Below are positions 2,034 through 12,628 of a DNA stretch of 37,462 nt, piece after piece. Position numbers and translations under genes: made by a program. Below the pieces are notes generated by a model. It did no database searches and was not told the origin of the DNA. It was given only the letters and a program-made list of their open reading frames with translations. The first letter of the stretch is position 1, and every line of letters begins with the position of its first letter. This DNA comes from a virus. Taxonomy: Duplodnaviria; Heunggongvirae; Uroviricota; Caudoviricetes. The DNA is taken from IMG/VR virus record IMGVR_UViG_2778261530_000007; one strand, 5' to 3'.

Positions 2034-2456
2034 ATGAAAACAAACACGTCAGATTTCACAATAACTATTTCAAAAAATGACCAAGCATTAATTGATAACC
2101 TGAAATACCTTGCGGAAAAACATAATAACGGACGAATTGCAATTAATTTACGACACATCACAGGAGTAACAATTGTAACCAGTTACTGGCATCTATATCT
2201 AATCGCTAAATCAGTACTGAAAAACAAAGATTCTGTTGTCAATGGAAGAGATGTAGATACTCTTCCTGCACAAATCAAACCGATAGCCTATCAATTGCGT
2301 AATCGTTTTAAAAATGAAGGTGGGATTATATTTGACTTTCCCGCAGCTGTAGCCGTGAGCTTCTCTCGGGAGGATATACTTCACTCATTTCGTTTTGCTC
2401 TATCAGGTGACGAGACATTATGGCAGCTAGAAGATGCCGGGAGCAGCCCGGCATAA
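2034..2456 (+). CDS. Hypothetical protein (141 aa) in an AT-rich moron; start taken at the internal ATG with a GAGG RBS rather than the long ORF-track start
   Basis: Uninterrupted ORF; AT-rich composition unlike flanking phage genes; no recognisable motif. Confidence 0.5.
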   Translation: MKTNTSDFTITISKNDQALIDNLKYLAEKHNNGRIAINLRHITGVTIVTSYWHLYLIAKSVLKNKDSVVNGRDVDTLPAQIKPIAYQLRNRFKNEGGIIFDFPAAVAVSFSREDILHSFRFALSGDETLWQLEDAGSSPA

Positions 2457-2462
2457 ATCAAA

Positions 2463-2654
2463 TTAAAAATCAACCAGTTGTGTGACAGGTGGGTATTTAC
2501 GCTGAATTTTGTCAGTTACTAACGCCAGTAATATATGAATCTCTGCGTTTAATGCGTCTTTATCACCCGTCGTTTTTACCCTAGGAGGGTTAATGTTATC
2601 CAGAGCAGCACTAAGGTCACTCAACAAATTAACAACTTTTTTATCTTCTGACAT
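2463..2654 (-). CDS. Hypothetical small protein (63 aa), convergent with the preceding moron gene
   Basis: ORF with AGAGG RBS 7 nt upstream of ATG on the minus strand; same AT-rich block. Confidence 0.45.
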   Translation of the reverse strand: MSEDKKVVNLLSDLSAALDNINPPRVKTTGDKDALNAEIHILLALVTDKIQRKYPPVTQLVDF

Positions 2655-2789
2655 GAAAACCTCTAAACAATTTAATTAAACATAAGCCAGGACCTGAACC
2701 GGCCAGTCCAAGTCCTAGACACACAAAAAATACCACAAATCAATACAAGGTGACACGAGTACACCTTACCGAAGGTACAGAGTTTTAAT

Positions 2790-3140
2790 ATGAAACTACA
2801 GCGCAATTCTTCACAGCCGCGCTTCCGCAACGGTGCGGAACGCCACGCTAACCGTTTCGCTACCAGTGCATCACGTAGCAACTCTCGCTACAGCCTGAGC
2901 GAAACACACGCAACGCCGGATGGCTACCCAGTAAAACAAATCGGCGAGCATACCTGGCTGATTGAGAAAGCTGGAATTGTGGTCCACAAATGCCCACGCA
3001 ATCCGTTTACCGGAAACCGCATTTTTGCATTGAGCAACGGCGACAATCAGTTCGGACAGGATTTTACATTGTACGAAGCGCTACGCACGGTTGACCGCTT
3101 AATTGCAGGACGTAGTTTTCAGCATCCACGGGGGAATTAA
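2790..3140 (+). CDS. Hypothetical early protein (116 aa)
   Basis: ORF in the rightward early operon; no recognisable motif. Confidence 0.5.
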   Translation: MKLQRNSSQPRFRNGAERHANRFATSASRSNSRYSLSETHATPDGYPVKQIGEHTWLIEKAGIVVHKCPRNPFTGNRIFALSNGDNQFGQDFTLYEALRTVDRLIAGRSFQHPRGN

Positions 3141-3143
3141 CCA

Positions 3144-3398
3144 ATGGCAACAACGACAAAAAACATGGTAGAGATAGCCTCGGCCTACACTCTTATCATA
3201 CACCGACTCATAGATAATAATGCCCGTGATGCATTAAATACGGTGAAACCTTTATCGGAAGCAAAAAGCGATACTATCAGCGGATTAAAGTCACTACAGG
3301 AATGCGCACGCTATGCAGGTGATCACGCCGCATACATGGCCATTAACGATGCAATTGAGCGCATTGAATCAGGTAAACCATTAAGAGATTTTGTTTAA
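3144..3398 (+). CDS. Hypothetical early protein (84 aa)
   Basis: Tightly packed ORF starting 4 nt after the previous stop. Confidence 0.55.
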   Translation: MATTTKNMVEIASAYTLIIHRLIDNNARDALNTVKPLSEAKSDTISGLKSLQECARYAGDHAAYMAINDAIERIESGKPLRDFV

Positions 3399-3864: not shown

Positions 3865-4275
3865 ATGAACGCAAAAGAAAAAGGCATTGTAACTGCGCTA
3901 AAAAATATATCAGAGACCGCAAACAGAGCCATTCAGGATGCAACAAATGCAGGAATGATTGGGCCTGCCACCACGGCCATGATGATAACAAGAGTAACCG
4001 CCGAAGCAGCCGAAATCATCGAAAAACAGGATGCTGAACTAACGGTTCTCAAAACACAACCAACCACCAGACTGAATTTATCTGACATTGGACACCTTAT
4101 TCATATTATTGGCTCGGAGCTACAGCAATACATCATTATCGCCGAATTGCAGGACAAATACCTGATTACCCCTTACCCCGTAAGAGAGTCAGAAGTTCTG
4201 ACAAATCTCCGCCTGATAGAACGCACTCAGGCCGCATTCATTGATGGCACGCAACGTGCCGTATTTAACGCATAG
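3865..4275 (+). CDS. Hypothetical early protein (136 aa)
   Basis: ORF in operon context. Confidence 0.55.
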   Translation: MNAKEKGIVTALKNISETANRAIQDATNAGMIGPATTAMMITRVTAEAAEIIEKQDAELTVLKTQPTTRLNLSDIGHLIHIIGSELQQYIIIAELQDKYLITPYPVRESEVLTNLRLIERTQAAFIDGTQRAVFNA

Positions 4276-5051: not shown

Positions 5052-5255
5052 ATGAACAAAAAGACCTGGTTTCGCGCATACATGTGGGCGCTGGTATGCG
5101 TCCTCGTTTCTCTCATTCTGTATGCAGGACTACTCCCCCGAATGATTTCATCAGACAGCTCCTTCCTGGTATTGCTGGGCATTTTCATTGCCATGCTGTA
5201 CCCGGCAGGCGTTGTTCGCCTTTTCAGTAAGTACATCAAGGAAATCAAACAATGA
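5052..5255 (+). CDS. Small membrane protein with two predicted TM helices (67 aa); possible partner of the downstream SPFH protein
   Basis: Two hydrophobic stretches (WALVCVLVSLILYAGLL and FLVLLGIFIAMLYPAGVV); stop overlaps the SPFH gene start (ATGA). Confidence 0.55.
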   Translation: MNKKTWFRAYMWALVCVLVSLILYAGLLPRMISSDSSFLVLLGIFIAMLYPAGVVRLFSKYIKEIKQ

Positions 5256-6082
5256 AGAAATTCAAACTCTTTCAGATTATCCCTCTTTTTGCCGCCATCC
5301 TGCTGGTTGGTTGCGATCGTGTTGAGCCAGGTAATGTGGGCATCAAAGTCAACAAACTGGGCGACGATAAAGGCGTCGGTGAAGTGGTTGGTGTTGGCCG
5401 CTACTGGACTGGCTGGAATACCGAGGTTTACATCTTCCCGACCTTCAAACAAATGAAGACCTACGATGAGCCGTTCAGCTTCCAGATGAGTGACGGCACA
5501 ACCATCGGCTATCACATCGGTGTGGCCTACAAGGTTGATCCATCCAAAGTTACTACAGTGTTTCAGACCTACCGCAAAGGCGTGGATGACATTACCGACA
5601 CTGACCTGCGCCAGAAGATAGCCGACGCACTCAACCGACTGGCCAGCAAAATGACCACCGACAAATTTATCGACGGCGGGAAATCTGAACTACTGGATGC
5701 AGCTCTTAAAGACATTCAGGAGGAAATGACACCCATCGGTATTCAGGTAATGAGCCTCTCATATGTGGGTAAGCCGGAGTACCCGTCAACCGTTATCGAC
5801 AGCATTAATGCCAAAGTCACGGCAAACCAGAAAACCCTGCAACGCGAACAGGAAGTCAAGCAACGTGAAGCAGAAGCCAACATGTTGCGCGCAGAAGCTG
5901 CCGGACAGGCTGATGCGATTCGCACAAAAGCCCAGGCTGAAGCCGACGCTATTCGTTTACGCGGTGAAGCTCTGCGCCAGAATCCCGGCGTTATGGAGCT
6001 GGAAGCAATCAACAAATGGAACGGCACGCTGCCGCAATACATGACCAGCAATACCGCTGTTCCGTTTGTTCCGGTGAAGTAA
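5252..6082 (+). CDS. SPFH/band-7 (prohibitin/flotillin-like) domain lipoprotein
   Basis: Lipobox signal peptide ending LLVGC; SPFH-like core followed by an Ala/Glu/Gln-rich coiled-coil (EQEVKQREAEANMLRAEAAGQADAIRTKAQAEADAIRLRGEA). Confidence 0.8.
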   Translation: MKKFKLFQIIPLFAAILLVGCDRVEPGNVGIKVNKLGDDKGVGEVVGVGRYWTGWNTEVYIFPTFKQMKTYDEPFSFQMSDGTTIGYHIGVAYKVDPSKVTTVFQTYRKGVDDITDTDLRQKIADALNRLASKMTTDKFIDGGKSELLDAALKDIQEEMTPIGIQVMSLSYVGKPEYPSTVIDSINAKVTANQKTLQREQEVKQREAEANMLRAEAAGQADAIRTKAQAEADAIRLRGEALRQNPGVMELEAINKWNGTLPQYMTSNTAVPFVPVK

Positions 6083-7124: not shown

Positions 7125-9947
7125 ATGACGGCAGAGTACATCAGGGACTGGCAACAACCGCGCCACGCAGTGGGGCGTGAAGGAACGGGGATCCCCGCTC
7201 CTGAATCCGCGCTTTCCTCCTGGCTGGATGCCTACCGGGCAGAGAACGAGCGCCGCCAGGAAATGGCTGATGCGGCGTTCTCCGCCACGCCGCTGGGCAA
7301 CCTGATTAATAAAAACCTGGACGCACAGGAAAAACAGGACAAAACCATCACACTGGCAGGAGACGCCAGAAAACAGGCACGCGGCGCGGTGGATGAAGCC
7401 ATGGCCTCGCTGCGCCTGCTGCCGTCCTATCTGCGCGATCCGCTTATTCGCCACCTCTCCTTCCTGCGCAAAAAACAGGAAGCCGATCGCCGGAAAGGCA
7501 AAAAGAGCTGGCAGGCGGAACGCTATGCACGCGGAACCCTGCGCAAAATATTCGAACGTCTGGATCGCACTGACGGACACTGGCTGACACCGGGTTATCG
7601 CTCCCTTGCCGGACGCGAACGCCTGGACGATTTGCTTTACCTGCCGCAGCTCAACAAACACCAGATACAGACGCTGGCCACCATGACGGCGGCGATGTTC
7701 AGCAGCACCTTCGAAAAACTCTGCGATGGCTTTGGCGCGACCGATGGCGAACTGACCATGGATGTAACGCTGAAGGCGTATCAGATGCTGGCCCGCATGG
7801 CGTTACACCTGCACATCATGCCTCCACATTATGACGCACTGACAACAGATAAAGACCGGAGGAACGAACCGGACACGGAGCTGCTGCCGGGCGCAATCCT
7901 TCGCCTGACCTGTGCGGAATGGTGGAAACGCAAACTGTGGCTGTTACGTTGCGAGTGGAGAGAAGAACAACTCCGCGCCGCCTGTCTGGTTTCCAGAAAA
8001 ACATCACCCTATCTGAGCCAGGACGCGTTAAGCGAGTTTCGCGCACAGCGCGAGAAAACACGCGATTTCCTGAAAAGTTTCATGCTGGAAAACGAAGACG
8101 GGTTCACGATTGATCTCGAGACAGTGTATTACGCGGGAGTAAGTAACCCGGTTCACCGTAAGGCAGAAATGATGGCCACCATGAAGGGGCTGGAACTTCT
8201 GGCCGAAGCCCGTGGCGACAAAGCGGTGTTTCTGACTGTCACCTGCCCGTCAAAATACCACGCCACAACAGAGAACGGTCATCCGAATCCCAGATGGAAC
8301 GGGGCCACCATGCGCGACTCCAGCGATTACCTGGTTAACACGTTTTTTGCAGCGGTCCGCAAGAAACTGAACCGCGATGGCCTGCGCTGGTATGGCATCC
8401 GCACGGTGGAGCCTCACCATGACGGCACCGTGCACTGGCATATGATGGTCTTTGCTCATCCGGAAGAAATCGACAGCATTGTGGCCATCACCCGCGATAT
8501 TGCCATTCAGGAAGACCGCCACGAGCTGGGCGATGACATAACTCCGCGTTTTAAGGCGGAGTACGTAGACGGCTCAAAAGGCACACCAACCAGCTATATC
8601 GCGACCTACATCGGAAAAAACCTGGACAGCCGCGCCGTGGATGGCATCGACCCGAAAACGGGCAAGCCACGCGTTGACCACGAAACCGGAAAATCAATGG
8701 CAGAGAGCGTGGAACGCGCCATCGGCTGGGCGCGCCTTCACCGGGTCCGCCAGTTCCAGTTCTTTGGTATCCCCTCCCGTCAGGTGTGGCGTGAACTGCG
8801 TCGCCTTGCCAGCCAGATGGCACGCAACCCGGAAGGCCCGCAACGGCTGAAGGATGACGCAATGGACTCGGTTCTTGCTGCCGCTGATGCCGGATGTTTT
8901 GCCACCTACATAGAGAAACAGGGCGGCGTACTTGTTCCACGCAAAGACTACCTGATTCGCACCGCCTACGACCTCGCAGATGAGCTGAACGATTACGGCG
9001 AACAGAGCGTACAGATTTACGGGATCTGGTCACCACTCATCGGGGAATCCTCCCGTGTGTGCACGCATCCGGATAACTGGAAGCTGGTAAGACGTAAACC
9101 AGAACCGGAAGACAACGCCCACGAAAATGGTTTTGACCTTCAGGGCGGCCCTGCCGCCCCTTGGACTCGTGGCAATAACTGTCCCCGTGTACAGGAAACG
9201 GACAACAACGGGACAGAACAGCCGGAAGAACGGCCAGCACCGTGGCCGCAGCTCCCTGACGGCGTTGAAGTGAACGAATGGATGCGCTCACTGAAACGGC
9301 ACGAACGCCGGGCGCTGATGCGTTCGCTTCGTGACAAACAGGCAAAAAACAGCAGTGATGAAATGCAGAGCTGGACACAGAGCCGCAAACAGCAGCGGCC
9401 TTTGCCTGATAACCACGAATTACTCGCTAAAGAATGGCGGGAGTCTGCTGAATCTCTCGGCCTGCATATCGGTGAACAACAGATGCAGCACCTGTTACGG
9501 GGCGGCAGTCTGTACGTTGACGGCAGCATCATTGCACCGCAGGGATTTGAAATTGTACGCAAACCGGATACCCGCCCGGACAGCCGAATCACGCAGCTCT
9601 GGCAGCGCCTGAGCCGTAATCATGGCGTAAGCAGCACGGAGATCCGCCATAACCCGGTCGCCAGCTATCTGGCACAGCTGGGGGCATCAGACCCTGAAGC
9701 CGCCGCACGCCTGGCATCCACACTTCAGCAGGACCAGAACACCATGAAAACACCCGTTACCGTGCTTTCTGACATGCTGCGCGCCATCCGCGACGCAGAG
9801 CACGCACAGAGAATCAGTGAAACCACTGAACGCGCCAGCCGCAAAGCAGACCTGCTGCGGGGTGGCCTGACCAGTGGAAACAAAAAACAGACAGAAACGG
9901 GACTCACGAATCCCGTAAATGAGCAAAAAACGTGCCGCGATATATGA
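7125..9947 (+). CDS. A: Replication initiation endonuclease (P2 gpA family, rolling-circle nickase); 940 aa with a long C-terminal extension
   Basis: HUH-type metal motif (TVHWHMMVF) and paired-tyrosine active-site motif (YIATYIGKN); position after the early genes. Confidence 0.9.
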   Translation: MTAEYIRDWQQPRHAVGREGTGIPAPESALSSWLDAYRAENERRQEMADAAFSATPLGNLINKNLDAQEKQDKTITLAGDARKQARGAVDEAMASLRLLPSYLRDPLIRHLSFLRKKQEADRRKGKKSWQAERYARGTLRKIFERLDRTDGHWLTPGYRSLAGRERLDDLLYLPQLNKHQIQTLATMTAAMFSSTFEKLCDGFGATDGELTMDVTLKAYQMLARMALHLHIMPPHYDALTTDKDRRNEPDTELLPGAILRLTCAEWWKRKLWLLRCEWREEQLRAACLVSRKTSPYLSQDALSEFRAQREKTRDFLKSFMLENEDGFTIDLETVYYAGVSNPVHRKAEMMATMKGLELLAEARGDKAVFLTVTCPSKYHATTENGHPNPRWNGATMRDSSDYLVNTFFAAVRKKLNRDGLRWYGIRTVEPHHDGTVHWHMMVFAHPEEIDSIVAITRDIAIQEDRHELGDDITPRFKAEYVDGSKGTPTSYIATYIGKNLDSRAVDGIDPKTGKPRVDHETGKSMAESVERAIGWARLHRVRQFQFFGIPSRQVWRELRRLASQMARNPEGPQRLKDDAMDSVLAAADAGCFATYIEKQGGVLVPRKDYLIRTAYDLADELNDYGEQSVQIYGIWSPLIGESSRVCTHPDNWKLVRRKPEPEDNAHENGFDLQGGPAAPWTRGNNCPRVQETDNNGTEQPEERPAPWPQLPDGVEVNEWMRSLKRHERRALMRSLRDKQAKNSSDEMQSWTQSRKQQRPLPDNHELLAKEWRESAESLGLHIGEQQMQHLLRGGSLYVDGSIIAPQGFEIVRKPDTRPDSRITQLWQRLSRNHGVSSTEIRHNPVASYLAQLGASDPEAAARLASTLQQDQNTMKTPVTVLSDMLRAIRDAEHAQRISETTERASRKADLLRGGLTSGNKKQTETGLTNPVNEQKTCRDI

Positions 9948-9995
9948 AGCGCGCACAAAACAGGCAAAAGCGGGATTTAAAAATCCTGTAAACGA
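9899..9995. promoter_or_regulatory. Two copies of a 25-bp site CGGGA-N7-ATCC(C/T)G-TAAA(T/C)GA (9899..9923 and 9972..9996), each with an internal inverted repeat; candidate ParR-binding (parC-like) site or promoter operator for parM
   Basis: Read directly: CGGGACTCACGAATCCCGTAAATGA and CGGGATTTAAAAATCCTGTAAACGA, about 73 bp apart, immediately upstream of parM. Confidence 0.4.
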
Positions 9996-10023
9996 TTAAT
10001 TAATCAACATAAGGAAAAGCGAC

Positions 10024-10983
10024 ATGAAAATTTGTATCGACGACGGCTCCACCAACATCAAGCTGGCATGGACTGAGAACGGCGAACGCCGCAACGCCAT
10101 CAGCCCGAACAGCTTCAAGTCGGAATGGTCTGCGCCGTTCGGTGGCACGCAGCCCGCGAACTACATGCTTGATGGCGTGCGCTATGGTTTTGATCCGGTC
10201 AGCGATCGCTTTGTCCAGACGACCGACACGCAATACCAGTACAGCGATGTGAATGTCATTGCCATTCATCACGCGCTGGTCAAATCAGGCATCACGCCAC
10301 AGGAGGTGGATGTGGTTGTCACCCTGCCACTGAGCGAGTATTTCGACACAAACGCACAGCCGGACATAGCCAACATCAACCGCAAAAAAGCGAACGTTAT
10401 GCGCCCGGTGGAGTACCAGAACGGCGAAGCATTCACTATCCGTAACGTGCGGGTTATGCCTGAATCCATTCCGGCTGGCTTTAAGGCACTGGCTGACATG
10501 AGTCCGTTTGAATCCCTGCTGATTGTGGATTTGGGCGGAACCACGCTGGATGTGGCAAAGGTTCAGGGGCAACTGGCAGGTATCAGCCAGGTGTTTTGCG
10601 ATCCACACGTAGGCGTTTCTATGATGGCCGATGCCGTACTGTCGGTGATGGCCACTAACGGTATGCGCACCAGTCACCACATCGCCAATACCATTATCGA
10701 ACATCGCCATGATGAAGCCTGGCTGCGCCAGCACATCCACAATGACGCGCATTACGCCAGCCTGATGGCGGTTATTCGTGAAAAGGAAGAAACACTGAAA
10801 CAACGCGTGATCCGCGCACTGGCGGGTTTTTCGGGTTACGGGCGGGTGATGGTTGTCGGTGGCGGGGCGGAGATTGTGGCACCCGCTATCCGCGAAGCCT
10901 GCGGAGTTAATGCGACTTTCATCGCGGACGGGGTGCCACAGTTTGCTCTGGTTAATGGGCTGTACGCAATGGACAAGGAGTAA
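10024..10983 (+). CDS. parM: ParM/StbA-family actin-like segregation ATPase
   Basis: Strong similarity to plasmid R1 ParM as recalled (ICIDDGSTNIKLAW, ISPNSFK, YQYSDVNV, VMPESIPAG, DLGGTTLDV, GGGAEI, LVNGLY). Confidence 0.88.
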   Translation: MKICIDDGSTNIKLAWTENGERRNAISPNSFKSEWSAPFGGTQPANYMLDGVRYGFDPVSDRFVQTTDTQYQYSDVNVIAIHHALVKSGITPQEVDVVVTLPLSEYFDTNAQPDIANINRKKANVMRPVEYQNGEAFTIRNVRVMPESIPAGFKALADMSPFESLLIVDLGGTTLDVAKVQGQLAGISQVFCDPHVGVSMMADAVLSVMATNGMRTSHHIANTIIEHRHDEAWLRQHIHNDAHYASLMAVIREKEETLKQRVIRALAGFSGYGRVMVVGGGAEIVAPAIREACGVNATFIADGVPQFALVNGLYAMDKE

Positions 10984-10987
10984 ACCA

Positions 10988-11299
10988 ATGACGACACCAA
11001 CCAGACGGATAAGTTTCTATCTGAAGCCCGCCGCCGTCAAGAACGAAGGTGAAGCATGCGCCTGGCTGGACAGCCTTACACCAGAAGCGCGCAAAAGCGG
11101 CCAACGCGTGGCTTTTCTGGCCGGGCTGGCACTTCTGAAAATGAATCCGGCAGAGGCTTACCGACTGGCTGCATGGGCTGATGATGAAGCGTTATCAGTG
11201 ACACAAACCAGGACAGAACGCCCCGCGTCACAGCCAGTATCAACCGCACAGATAACCAGTCAGATGGCCGGAAATATCCGGGCGTTATTTCCCGAATAA
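10988..11299 (+). CDS. parR: ParR-like partition adaptor protein
   Basis: Immediately downstream of parM with AAGGAG RBS; motifs shared with R1 ParR as recalled (RRISFYLKP vs RRTIAFKLNP; FLAGLALL vs LTAGLALY; IRALFPE vs ILRSLFPKE). Confidence 0.7.
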   Translation: MTTPTRRISFYLKPAAVKNEGEACAWLDSLTPEARKSGQRVAFLAGLALLKMNPAEAYRLAAWADDEALSVTQTRTERPASQPVSTAQITSQMAGNIRALFPE

Positions 11300-11304
11300 C
11301 ACAA

Positions 11305-11328
11305 CATCAGGGCGCATCCGCCCTGATG
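11305..11328 (+). terminator. Perfect hairpin (10-bp stem CATCAGGGCG / CGCCCTGATG, 4-nt loop) between parR and the ZBD gene; terminator, attenuator or protein-binding palindrome
   Basis: Inverted repeat read from the sequence. Confidence 0.4.
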
Positions 11329-11362: not shown

Positions 11363-11698
11363 ATGCAACGCATTGACAGAGAAAAAGCGCAGCGACTGAT
11401 TGAGCGGATGGAAGCGCTGGCGAAAGAAGAAAATGTCAACATCCAAAAAATAGCTGAATGTGGCCAGATAGTTCTTCGTCGTGAAAAAGACCTCAAACAA
11501 CTGATGTCTGGCGAAACCAGCAAAACATGGACTTCAGGTGAGGAGACGATTTATTGCAGCTTCTGCAATAAATCCCAGTACGAAGTCACAAAGGTGATTG
11601 CCGGACCGTCTGTTTACATCTGCAATGAGTGCGTTGATTTGTGCAATGAAGTTATCAGGAGAGAAGTGACAGACCATGAAGAAAAAACGCATGAATGA
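11363..11698 (+). CDS. Small protein with a C-terminal ClpX-type C4 zinc-binding domain (ZBD) and a novel N-terminal helical region; lacks the AAA+ module
   Basis: C-terminus [39 protein letters not shown] closely matches the ClpX N-terminal zinc finger as recalled ([39 protein letters not shown]). Confidence 0.8.
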
Positions 11699-11864: not shown

Positions 11865-12272
11865 TTAAATATAATCTTCTTCGTAGTCGCTGATTAATTC
11901 ATTGCCATAATCAGACAGCAATTTCAAAGCAAAGGTAACTTCCTCAAGGGTAGCTATCCCCATTGCTGAAAACACCGTTAATTTAACCAGCAGCAGGGAG
12001 TTTGAAAGTTCGGAAGAGTTCATCATTAAAAATATTGATGCAGCCTGAAAAGCTGTGCGTTTATTCCCATCATGAAAGGCATGAGCCTTGGCTATACCAA
12101 TCAAATACATAGCAGCCAGAGCATGAATATCATCAACCCCTTCATAGTAGTGTAGTGTCCTGACGCGATTTAAAGCACCTTCAAGTAGCCCGTCATTGGC
12201 ATTTCCGCTCTGGGGTAAAGTTTCAGCATGGATACGTTCTACTTGTTCTTTTGACAAAAACACTATGTCCAT
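11865..12272 (-). CDS. doc: Doc (death-on-curing) Fic-fold toxin
   Basis: Fic/Doc signature HAFHDGNKRTA; start overlaps the stop of the upstream antitoxin gene (TGATG). Confidence 0.85.
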   Translation of the reverse strand: MDIVFLSKEQVERIHAETLPQSGNANDGLLEGALNRVRTLHYYEGVDDIHALAAMYLIGIAKAHAFHDGNKRTAFQAASIFLMMNSSELSNSLLLVKLTVFSAMGIATLEEVTFALKLLSDYGNELISDYEEDYI

Positions 12273-12628
12273 CAGTTATCCTCAAGCTTTTTAATGATAT
12301 CCGCATGTTTTTCTCTTGTACGCTTCATTGCATCTTCAAAAGACAATCCTTTTTTTCTCTGTGCGACAAGAGCTGGATGACGTTTTTCCAGATCTCTCAC
12401 TGCATTTATTAAGAGTGGTTGCTTCATTTTGTTTATTTGATCCCGCAGTTTTTTGGTTTTGCCAAGGACAGCCCGTATTTCAGGACTAAGATCAGAACCA
12501 GCAAGAACAACATCCTTCCCTCCCTGCGCCGTGATAACGACACTGCCACCGGAAGAAAGGTAATCCAGAATTTCACTCAGGTTCTCACGAAATTCATCAT
12601 CAGTTACAGTTTTCATATTCATTTCCAT
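12272..12628 (-). CDS. phd: Putative Phd/YefM-type antitoxin with C-terminal extension, cognate to Doc
   Basis: Upstream of and translationally coupled to doc; N-terminal region resembles the Phd/YefM fold pattern (EFRENLSEILDYLSSGGSVVITAQGGKDVVL). Confidence 0.6.
   Translation of the reverse strand: MEMNMKTVTDDEFRENLSEILDYLSSGGSVVITAQGGKDVVLAGSDLSPEIRAVLGKTKKLRDQINKMKQPLLINAVRDLEKRHPALVAQRKKGLSFEDAMKRTREKHADIIKKLEDN

Follow-up and report, generated by a model that had tools for sequence, protein, structure and literature searches.

Two palindromic sites immediately upstream of the parM gene in a 37,462-nucleotide (nt) stretch of Caudoviricetes DNA (IMG/VR record IMGVR_UViG_2778261530_000007; hereafter, the window), the first of which lies inside the coding end of the replication gene A, probably represent the parC centromere of a phage-borne type II ParMRC partition cassette, where they would be bound by the adaptor protein ParR. 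The region of the window shares 98.5% identity with the P2-like temperate Escherichia phage P88 (Peduoviridae, Xuanwuvirus); the P88 record annotates the replication endonuclease, ParM and the partition protein, and the paired sites carry no annotation there. Our literature search found no paper describing the parC of P88-like phages. The A-parM-parR stretch is common, being present in 1375 of the 5426 complete Escherichia coli genomes.

Each site forms an imperfect palindrome whose 8-bp arms enclose a 4-bp center, in agreement with the inverted repeats reported in the initial annotation of this DNA: site 1 (9897-9916) is ACGGGACT-CACG-AATCCCGT and site 2 (9970-9989) is GCGGGATT-TAAA-AATCCTGT. 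The 25-mers originally used to describe the sites are correct in their letters, each occurring exactly once in the window, but not in their coordinates, which have to be moved one base leftward, to 9898-9922 and 9971-9995. The term near-identical somewhat overstates the resemblance of the two 25-mers, which share 19 of 25 positions in this window, but the similarity spreads over a longer direct repeat of 42 nt (9881-9922 and 9954-9995; 76% identity, 73 bp from start to start). Repeat unit 1 holds site 1, followed by TAAATGA, and falls within the last codons of gene A, whereas unit 2 holds site 2, followed by TAAACGA, and is intergenic, ending 28 nt before the parM start codon. The placement of site 1 in the coding end of A was thus accurate: it occupies part of the last 17 codons, and site 2 lies in the 76-nt gap that precedes the parM ATG at 10024. 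The 53-bp stretch between the palindromes (9917-9969) carries the stop codon of A (9945-9947) along with A-tracts phased at approximately 10.5 bp; this periodicity in the upstream region of the window was reached by 1 of 1000 shuffles, compared with 34 of 1000 for the parC control of plasmid R1 (locus L093). A degenerate pattern that covers both 25-mers, with up to two mismatches allowed, has no third match in the 37,462 bases, and none of 100 dinucleotide shuffles matched the degenerate two-site pattern.

The genes that flank the sites are readily assigned. Gene A (7125-9947, plus strand) encodes a P2-type replication endonuclease of 940 amino acids (PF05840, 3e-131). The parM gene (10024-10983, plus strand) encodes an actin-like segregation ATPase of 319 amino acids (PF06406, 3.6e-82; PF21523, 1.8e-68), residues 2-316 of which match the R1 ParM structure 1MWK (E=1.7e-92), and parR (10988-11299, plus strand), which starts 4 nt past the parM stop codon, encodes a ribbon-helix-helix centromere-binding adaptor of 103 amino acids (PF10784, 1.6e-24) with the N-terminal beta-strand TRRISFYLKP. 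A phmmer search of the PDB with this ParR alone gave no match; a profile made from six ParR proteins of the family matches the pB171 ParR structure 2JD3 (E=3.7e-13), and the ParR of the window can be aligned with R1 ParR, its C-terminal tail LFPE being kept and aligned with the C-terminal region of the R1 protein. Judging from these matches, the two downstream genes encode genuine homologs of R1-type ParM and ParR. Type II centromeres consist of repeats upstream of parM (PMC5016525; PMC2241845), and three parts of a type II ParMRC locus are found here, namely, the actin-like ATPase, the ribbon-helix-helix adaptor gene directly downstream of it, and repeated cis sites upstream of parM.

A ParM protein search combined with contig look-ups identified distant relatives of the cassette in P2-like prophages that carry parM-parR after gene A, in Hafnia (L089; 62% ParM identity), Plesiomonas (L091; 63%), Serratia (L092; 58%) and an Enterobacter type (L094 and L100; 54%). 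A ParM scan of genome contigs for further lineages returned three close loci only, and viral scans with the Hafnia and Plesiomonas ParM yielded no useful further lineage. The DNA upstream of parM in the Hafnia and Plesiomonas phages cannot be aligned with the window, yet each contains two yGGG-N10-CCCr sites followed by nAAAyG-like bases: TGGGATTGAGGAAACCCA at 3872 and CGGGTTCATTAAATCCCA at 3945 in Hafnia (spacing 73), and CGGGACAACAAAAACCCG at 3869 and CGGGACAACACTAACCCA at 3941 in Plesiomonas (spacing 72). Relative to the parM ATG, the GGG cores are located at -125 and -52 in the window, -128 and -55 in Hafnia, and -131 and -59 in Plesiomonas; in first-order Markov simulations of each 200-nt upstream region, such a site pair arose in 0 of 200,000 cases. 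A search of related prophages for the motif had been suggested in the initial annotation; paired sites 72-73 bp apart are present, in the same position, in three divergent lineages (P88, Hafnia and Plesiomonas). Phasing of A-tracts at 10.5 bp is absent upstream of parM in the Hafnia and Plesiomonas phages, and in P2, a phage without parMR, gene A is not followed by any GGG-N10-CCC site. In all three lineages, site 2 and the parM start are separated by a leader (9996-10023, plus strand, in the window) in which a conserved ATTAATCAA box precedes the Shine-Dalgarno sequence (AAGGAA in the window), the retained arrangement being ATTAATCAA...ATAAGGA, with the latter part serving as the ribosome-binding site; the box is found at 9996-10012 in the window, 3975-3990 in L089 and 3970-3990 in L091, in surroundings that are otherwise unalignable, and its distance is unworkable for a -10 element.

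The coding context of the sites differs among these lineages. In the Hafnia phage, an open reading frame (ORF) of 167 amino acids that is unrelated to A intervenes between A and parM; site 1 is located inside this ORF in another codon phase, where it reads YGIEETQ (window, TGLTNPV; family consensus, TGFTNPV), and the stop codon of the ORF overlaps site 2. In the Plesiomonas phage, A is homologous to P88 A up to residue 696 only, yet terminates inside site 1. Given that the Hafnia sites reside in an unrelated ORF and in a different frame, conservation is at the DNA level, and the conserved element is a DNA motif that accompanies parMR, rather than a peptide or a part of A.

The same observations bear on the possibility that the repeat is protein-coding. 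The window contains a 26-codon ORF in the +1 frame (MSKKRAAIYEARTKQAKAGFKNPVND; 9918-9998, plus strand) that carries site 2 in the codon register that site 1 has in A, so that a duplicated C-terminal peptide could be envisaged, TGLTNPVNE in A and AGFKNPVND at the end of the ORF, perhaps with a frameshift at the A6 run (9924-9929) linking the latter to A. Both copies indeed share a codon register in an open frame, 64 of 69 distinct relatives keep the ORF open, and in one relative (L010), in which A5 replaces A6, the frames are fused. Once a palindrome is read in the same phase, however, G-x-x-N-P-type peptides arise automatically, and the ORF lacks third-position bias: its variable sites are distributed among the three codon positions as 10/13/13, compared with 3/2/15 in parM, and it has 15 synonymous and 25 non-synonymous changes, compared with 16 and 5 in parM. 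Moreover, there is no Shine-Dalgarno sequence before its ATG and no equivalent ORF in the Plesiomonas or Hafnia phages, the Hafnia sites being located in another frame and another gene. Both the ORF and the frameshift fusion were accordingly rejected for want of a codon-position signature, a ribosome-binding site and equivalents in other lineages; the ORF was judged non-coding, and a coding origin of the repeat appears very improbable.

Comparison of gene arrangements reveals a module boundary. In a P88-like contig with an alternative 3' part of A (L028), homology to the window stops at 9361 and resumes at 9883, that is, at the first bases of repeat unit 1. This boundary shows that gene A merely reads into sites that move together with parMR; DNA of the par module thus supplies A with its stop codon and last ~21 codons. 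The suggestion in the initial annotation that the partition locus was grafted onto the end of A is upheld by this mosaic boundary and with the lineages in which other genes split A from parM while the sites stay with parM. A converse junction is seen in the chromosome of E. coli CUVET19-1704 (L103, 2620-2860), where a frameshifted ead/Ea22-like gene takes the place of parMR: the junction falls at ~9952, just past the A stop codon, so that site 2 is gone along with parMR and an orphan site 1 stays as the tail of A.

The location of site 1 in A, and its retention with A in the parMR-less CUVET19-1704 prophage, would be expected if the palindromes were bound by some other protein, such as A itself (through its C-terminal domain), a host factor or a different regulator encoded by the phage, with the adjacency of parMR being incidental, and a 20-bp palindrome with a variable center would suit any dimeric DNA-binding protein. 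We consider this decidedly unlikely because the C-terminal regions of A in the P88, Plesiomonas and Hafnia phages are non-homologous, yet the sites persist, and because parM and parR are the only neighbors common to the three lineages; in addition, the half-site resembles the iterons of the homologous R1 ParR (see below), and the window contains no further copies. A related scenario, under which the sites are part of the phage replication origin recognized by the A protein, draws on the annotation of the P2 ori nick inside gene A, where site 1 is found as well. The homolog of the P2 nick region is, however, located at ~9150-9185 (plus strand) within A, some 730 bp upstream of the sites (GCGGCCCTGCCGCCCCTTGGACTCGTGGCAATAACTGT, compared with GCGGCATCGCCGCGCCTCGGAGTCCTGTCAATAACTGT in P2), and this segment is the probable origin of the prophage. 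A P2-type ori at the palindromes was rejected on these grounds and, given also that the sites follow parMR rather than A and are missing after A in P2, an origin function appears extremely improbable.

Several features of the sites point indirectly to ParR as the probable cognate protein. The right half-sites of the phage palindromes, AAAyCCCrnAAAyG, appear to resemble the iterons of R1 parC, a likeness that concerns a short motif: the 11-bp iterons of the control locus L093 include AAACCCAAAAAC, AACCCATACCC and AAAACCCAAAAC, and the right half of Hafnia site 1, AAACCCAAAAAC, is identical to one of them. In ribbon-helix-helix proteins, the N-terminal beta-strand reads the bases and, among the loci compared, the upstream architecture changes in step with the type of this strand in ParR. 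The strand TRR[IV]SFYL in the P88, Hafnia and Plesiomonas phages goes with paired palindromes; NRKISFYL in the Serratia and Enterobacter relatives with one large inverted repeat, GGGAAC..ATAGAAAAAT - N26-30 - ATTTTTCT..GTTCCC; RRKI[QL]FY[LI] in locus L101 and a Pantoea plasmid (L097) with TCTC iterons; and RRTIAFKL in R1 with ACCC iterons.

Within otherwise 97-99% identical P88-like phages, parR exists as two alleles, that of the window (10988-11299) and a second one (3501-3815 in L083 and L085). The second allele encodes a ParR with ~52% identity overall in which the first 18 residues and the last four (LFPE) are identical, and the sites are unchanged. Given that the shared first 18 residues include the beta-strand, the comparison of alleles fits the link between ParR and the sites but does not discriminate. 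The pattern indicates recombination inside parR that apparently spared the DNA-reading and ParM-binding ends of the protein.

A family consensus was drawn from 83 distinct P88-like upstream sequences from IMG/VR and elsewhere. In this consensus, both sites become the perfect 8+4+8 palindrome ACGGGATT-N4-AATCCCGT, with the central four bases being the most variable positions (diversity 0.09 and 0.25). We further scanned IMG/VR contigs for the paired pattern, once with a CGGG start and once with a TGGG start. Among the matches listed in the CGGG scan, a P88-type parM is located immediately downstream in 75 of 77 newly fetched loci, the other two being a truncated locus and an unrelated one; the TGGG scan returned one P88-like contig and one GC-rich tandem-repeat false positive. 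The association between the paired pattern and parM is tight, yet one lineage dominates.

The unrelated match is an 81.5-kb phage contig (IMGVR_UViG_3300033121_001080; L110) with six GGGCAA-N6-rTCCC sites at 3180-3360 (minus strand). These sites have the GGG-N10-CCC geometry and form three pairs upstream of an ORF of 274 amino acids (2302-3126, minus strand) that has no Pfam match, beside a tRNA-like sequence; they may represent another centromere-like or operator-like array.

Palindromes of this kind might also act as hairpins, either as tandem minus-strand Rho-independent terminators that shield A from antisense transcription or as stem-loops within the transcript of A and parM. On the minus strand, site 1 is marked as terminator-like (8-bp stem, tail TTCTGTCTGT), and three of the four strands in the window fold at -9 to -10 kcal/mol (z from -2.1 to -3.3), but site 2 folds on the minus strand no better than shuffled sequences do (z = 0.01), and there is no minus-strand gene end nearby. 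In the Hafnia and Plesiomonas phages, furthermore, the hairpins are reduced to 4-bp GGG/CCC stems around 10-nt loops, and the T-tract is missing; conservation extends to the GGG-N10-CCC spacing and to the AAA flank but not to the pairing. With folds this modest, and neither hairpin nor tail conserved in L089 and L091, terminators and hairpins were rejected; we regard such a function as highly improbable.

The proposal of a parC together with an autoregulated promoter in front of parM, made in the initial annotation, holds up in part. The parC component is supported by the R1-type ParM and ParR, the conserved pair of sites and the iteron-like right halves, whereas the promoter component is not, given that none is detectable. 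A sigma-70 consensus scan of 9850-10023 gave no match at the scan threshold, and two weak promoter candidates picked by eye, TTTAAA-17-ATTAAT and GATATAT, were rejected because they are not conserved among variants or lineages. With no promoter detectable, autoregulation is unsupported; transcription may simply continue into parMR from the early operon, and the two genes would then be expressed together with A after induction.

We also considered the possibility that ParR, or another small regulator of the phage, uses the sites purely as operators to tune the expression of parMR, for instance, in the manner of a roadblock or a barrier to translation on transcripts that read through from A, with ParMR in a non-partition role and the sites devoid of centromere function. 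This alternative is unlikely. In its favor, only two sites are present, the second of which stops 28 nt short of the parM ATG; of the 1546 places where A-parM-parR is found in complete E. coli genomes, 1544 are chromosomal; and, in R1, the same contacts between ParR and the iterons also mediate repression (PMC2241845). However, in every type II system studied, the repeats upstream of parM double as operator and centromere (PMC5016525; PMC2241845), ParM and ParR are full length with the LFPE tail of ParR kept, and no promoter was found for the sites to control.

The R1 ParMRC system is the textbook actin-like DNA segregation machine, the centromere of which is pictured as an array of ten iterons that wraps a ring of ParR. 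Specifically, R1 parC consists of ten 11-bp direct repeats, in two groups of five, that flank a 39-bp promoter region and span 159 bp in total, with one ParR dimer bound per iteron (PMC2241845). An array of this type, ten 11-bp direct iterons in two blocks of five, is visible in the L093 control and absent in the window, where the direct iterons implied by the initial reference to ParMR systems are replaced by two palindromes. The similarities to R1 parC include homologous trans factors; the position immediately upstream of parM; a bipartite layout with two proposed ParR-binding blocks separated by an unbound stretch; a core that looks iteron-like, A-A/C-CCC ... AAAC; and, in the window, phased A-tracts in DNA that is probably curved. 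The differences are that the window has a pair of 20-bp palindromes at a distance of 73 bp, with four inverted half-sites in all, and that the stop codon of A, with no recognizable promoter, lies between them. The cis site is thus a probable architectural variant of a known system, R1-like in position, bipartite layout and iteron-like core but not in its iteron architecture.

Among other characterized systems, the srpC site of the SrpMRC system in the SXT/R391 integrative and conjugative elements similarly belongs to a type II partition locus on a normally integrated element. It comprises only four short direct and inverted repeats in front of the actin-like gene, and its target is the element once excised and replicating; both binding and stabilization have been demonstrated for srpC (PMC4489591). 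SrpR has no detectable similarity to ParR, and the srpC repeats are 13 bp long and of a different sequence. The AlpAC/alpS system of the Corynebacterium prophage CGP3 combines an actin-like filament with a DNA-binding adaptor that recognizes sites upstream of its own operon and serves the transport and replication of induced phage DNA rather than plasmid inheritance (PMC5539076; PMC4446434); the proteins, the host and the phage type are unrelated, and the analogy is one of role only. Finally, the parC of plasmid pSK41, a tandem repeat array bound by ribbon-helix-helix dimers of ParR with one dimer per iteron (PMC5016525), serves as the model for the cooperative multi-dimer binding that we propose for each 20-bp palindrome, although the repeats of pSK41 are contiguous and direct and its ParR is not detectably similar in sequence.

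For the P88-like cassette, ParR binding and its stoichiometry, filament capture and any regulatory effect on the expression of parMR are inferred, and we propose the following scenario. Each 20-bp palindrome comprises two inverted AATCCCGT boxes with the GGG and CCC cores 10 bp apart, and ribbon-helix-helix dimers of ParR would bind each palindrome, probably two per site, one on each box. The two loaded sites, 73 bp or approximately seven helical turns apart, would face the same side of the helix on DNA with phased A-tracts and form a bipartite complex comparable to the U-shaped ParR-parC complex of R1, which would present the C-terminal tails of ParR to the ends of ParM filaments. A growing filament end captured in this manner would then push apart or position extrachromosomal copies of the phage genome. 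As the prophage normally stays integrated, the substrate would be its DNA once excised or replicating. The cassette, including the sites, would be a mobile module inserted immediately behind the replication gene, such that the frame of A enters site 1 and stops between the sites.

Several observations weigh against a centromere. The first concerns location, with 1544 chromosomal occurrences as opposed to 2 on plasmids: in a prophage that is almost always integrated, a partition role would be limited to excised or replicating genomes. Second, two sites with four half-sites stand in place of the ten iterons of R1, and so small a centromere is unproven for the R1 ParR family; the two-palindrome form is, moreover, not universal, given the different upstream layout in the Serratia and Enterobacter relatives, and in this window site 2 has CCT where CCC is expected. 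Third, within the P88 lineage, the arms (diversity 0.047-0.060) are no more conserved than the 53-bp spacer (0.055), so that purifying selection on the arms is visible only between lineages and not among close relatives. To these points add the negative outcome of the sigma-70 scan. Taking these points into account, we favor the ParR-bound centromere as the probable function of the sites, but suggest only tentatively that a minimal type II centromere of two palindromic ParR sites, with four AATCCCGT boxes, suffices to link ParM filaments to phage genomes that are excised or replicating.

Several additional features of these prophages are of note. A circular record of 34,461 bp in PLSDB (NZ_CP148288.1), submitted as a plasmid of E. 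coli, is the genome of a P88-like phage, and a P88-like locus with 97% identity in an assembly labeled 'Vagococcus sp.' probably reflects contamination. Right after the parR stop codon of the window, at 11305-11328, there is a strong palindrome with a 10-bp stem, CATCAGGGCG-GATG-CGCCCTGATG, flagged as terminator-like on the minus strand only, which may mark the end of the par module. Directly after parR, an ORF of 111 amino acids (11363-11698, plus strand), labeled 'carboxylate-amine ligase' in P88, contains a ClpX C4 zinc finger as its sole recognizable domain (PF06689, 3.1e-17); this stand-alone ClpX N-domain protein may serve ClpX as a decoy or an adaptor. A toxin-antitoxin pair (11865-12628, minus strand) lies between the par cassette and the portal gene and comprises a Fic/Doc-family toxin of 135 amino acids (PF02661, 3.5e-11) and, upstream of it, a Phd/YefM-like antitoxin of 118 amino acids. 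The early region of the prophage includes a gene for an SPFH/Band-7 lipoprotein (5252-6082, plus strand; PF01145, 1.8e-30).

Should ParR not bind the sites, the finding would shrink to a conserved operator with an unknown partner. If the sites are a centromere, they would constitute a compact parC of 93 bp (9897-9989) that is easily testable and would show how far the ParR-DNA scaffold can be reduced, with the R1 ParR family able to build a working segrosome on far fewer, inverted sites than the ten-iteron paradigm implies. The arrangement is that of a par cassette the cis sites of which provide the last codons and the stop codon of the neighboring replication gene, and site mutants that spare A (except for its tail), ParM and ParR would offer a handle on why an integrated phage keeps a plasmid partition system. 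Under this scenario, an integrating P2-like prophage found in roughly one in four complete E. coli genomes would rely, while extrachromosomal, on a plasmid actin machine, either for positioning or segregation of the genome after induction or in a transient, plasmid-like carrier state.

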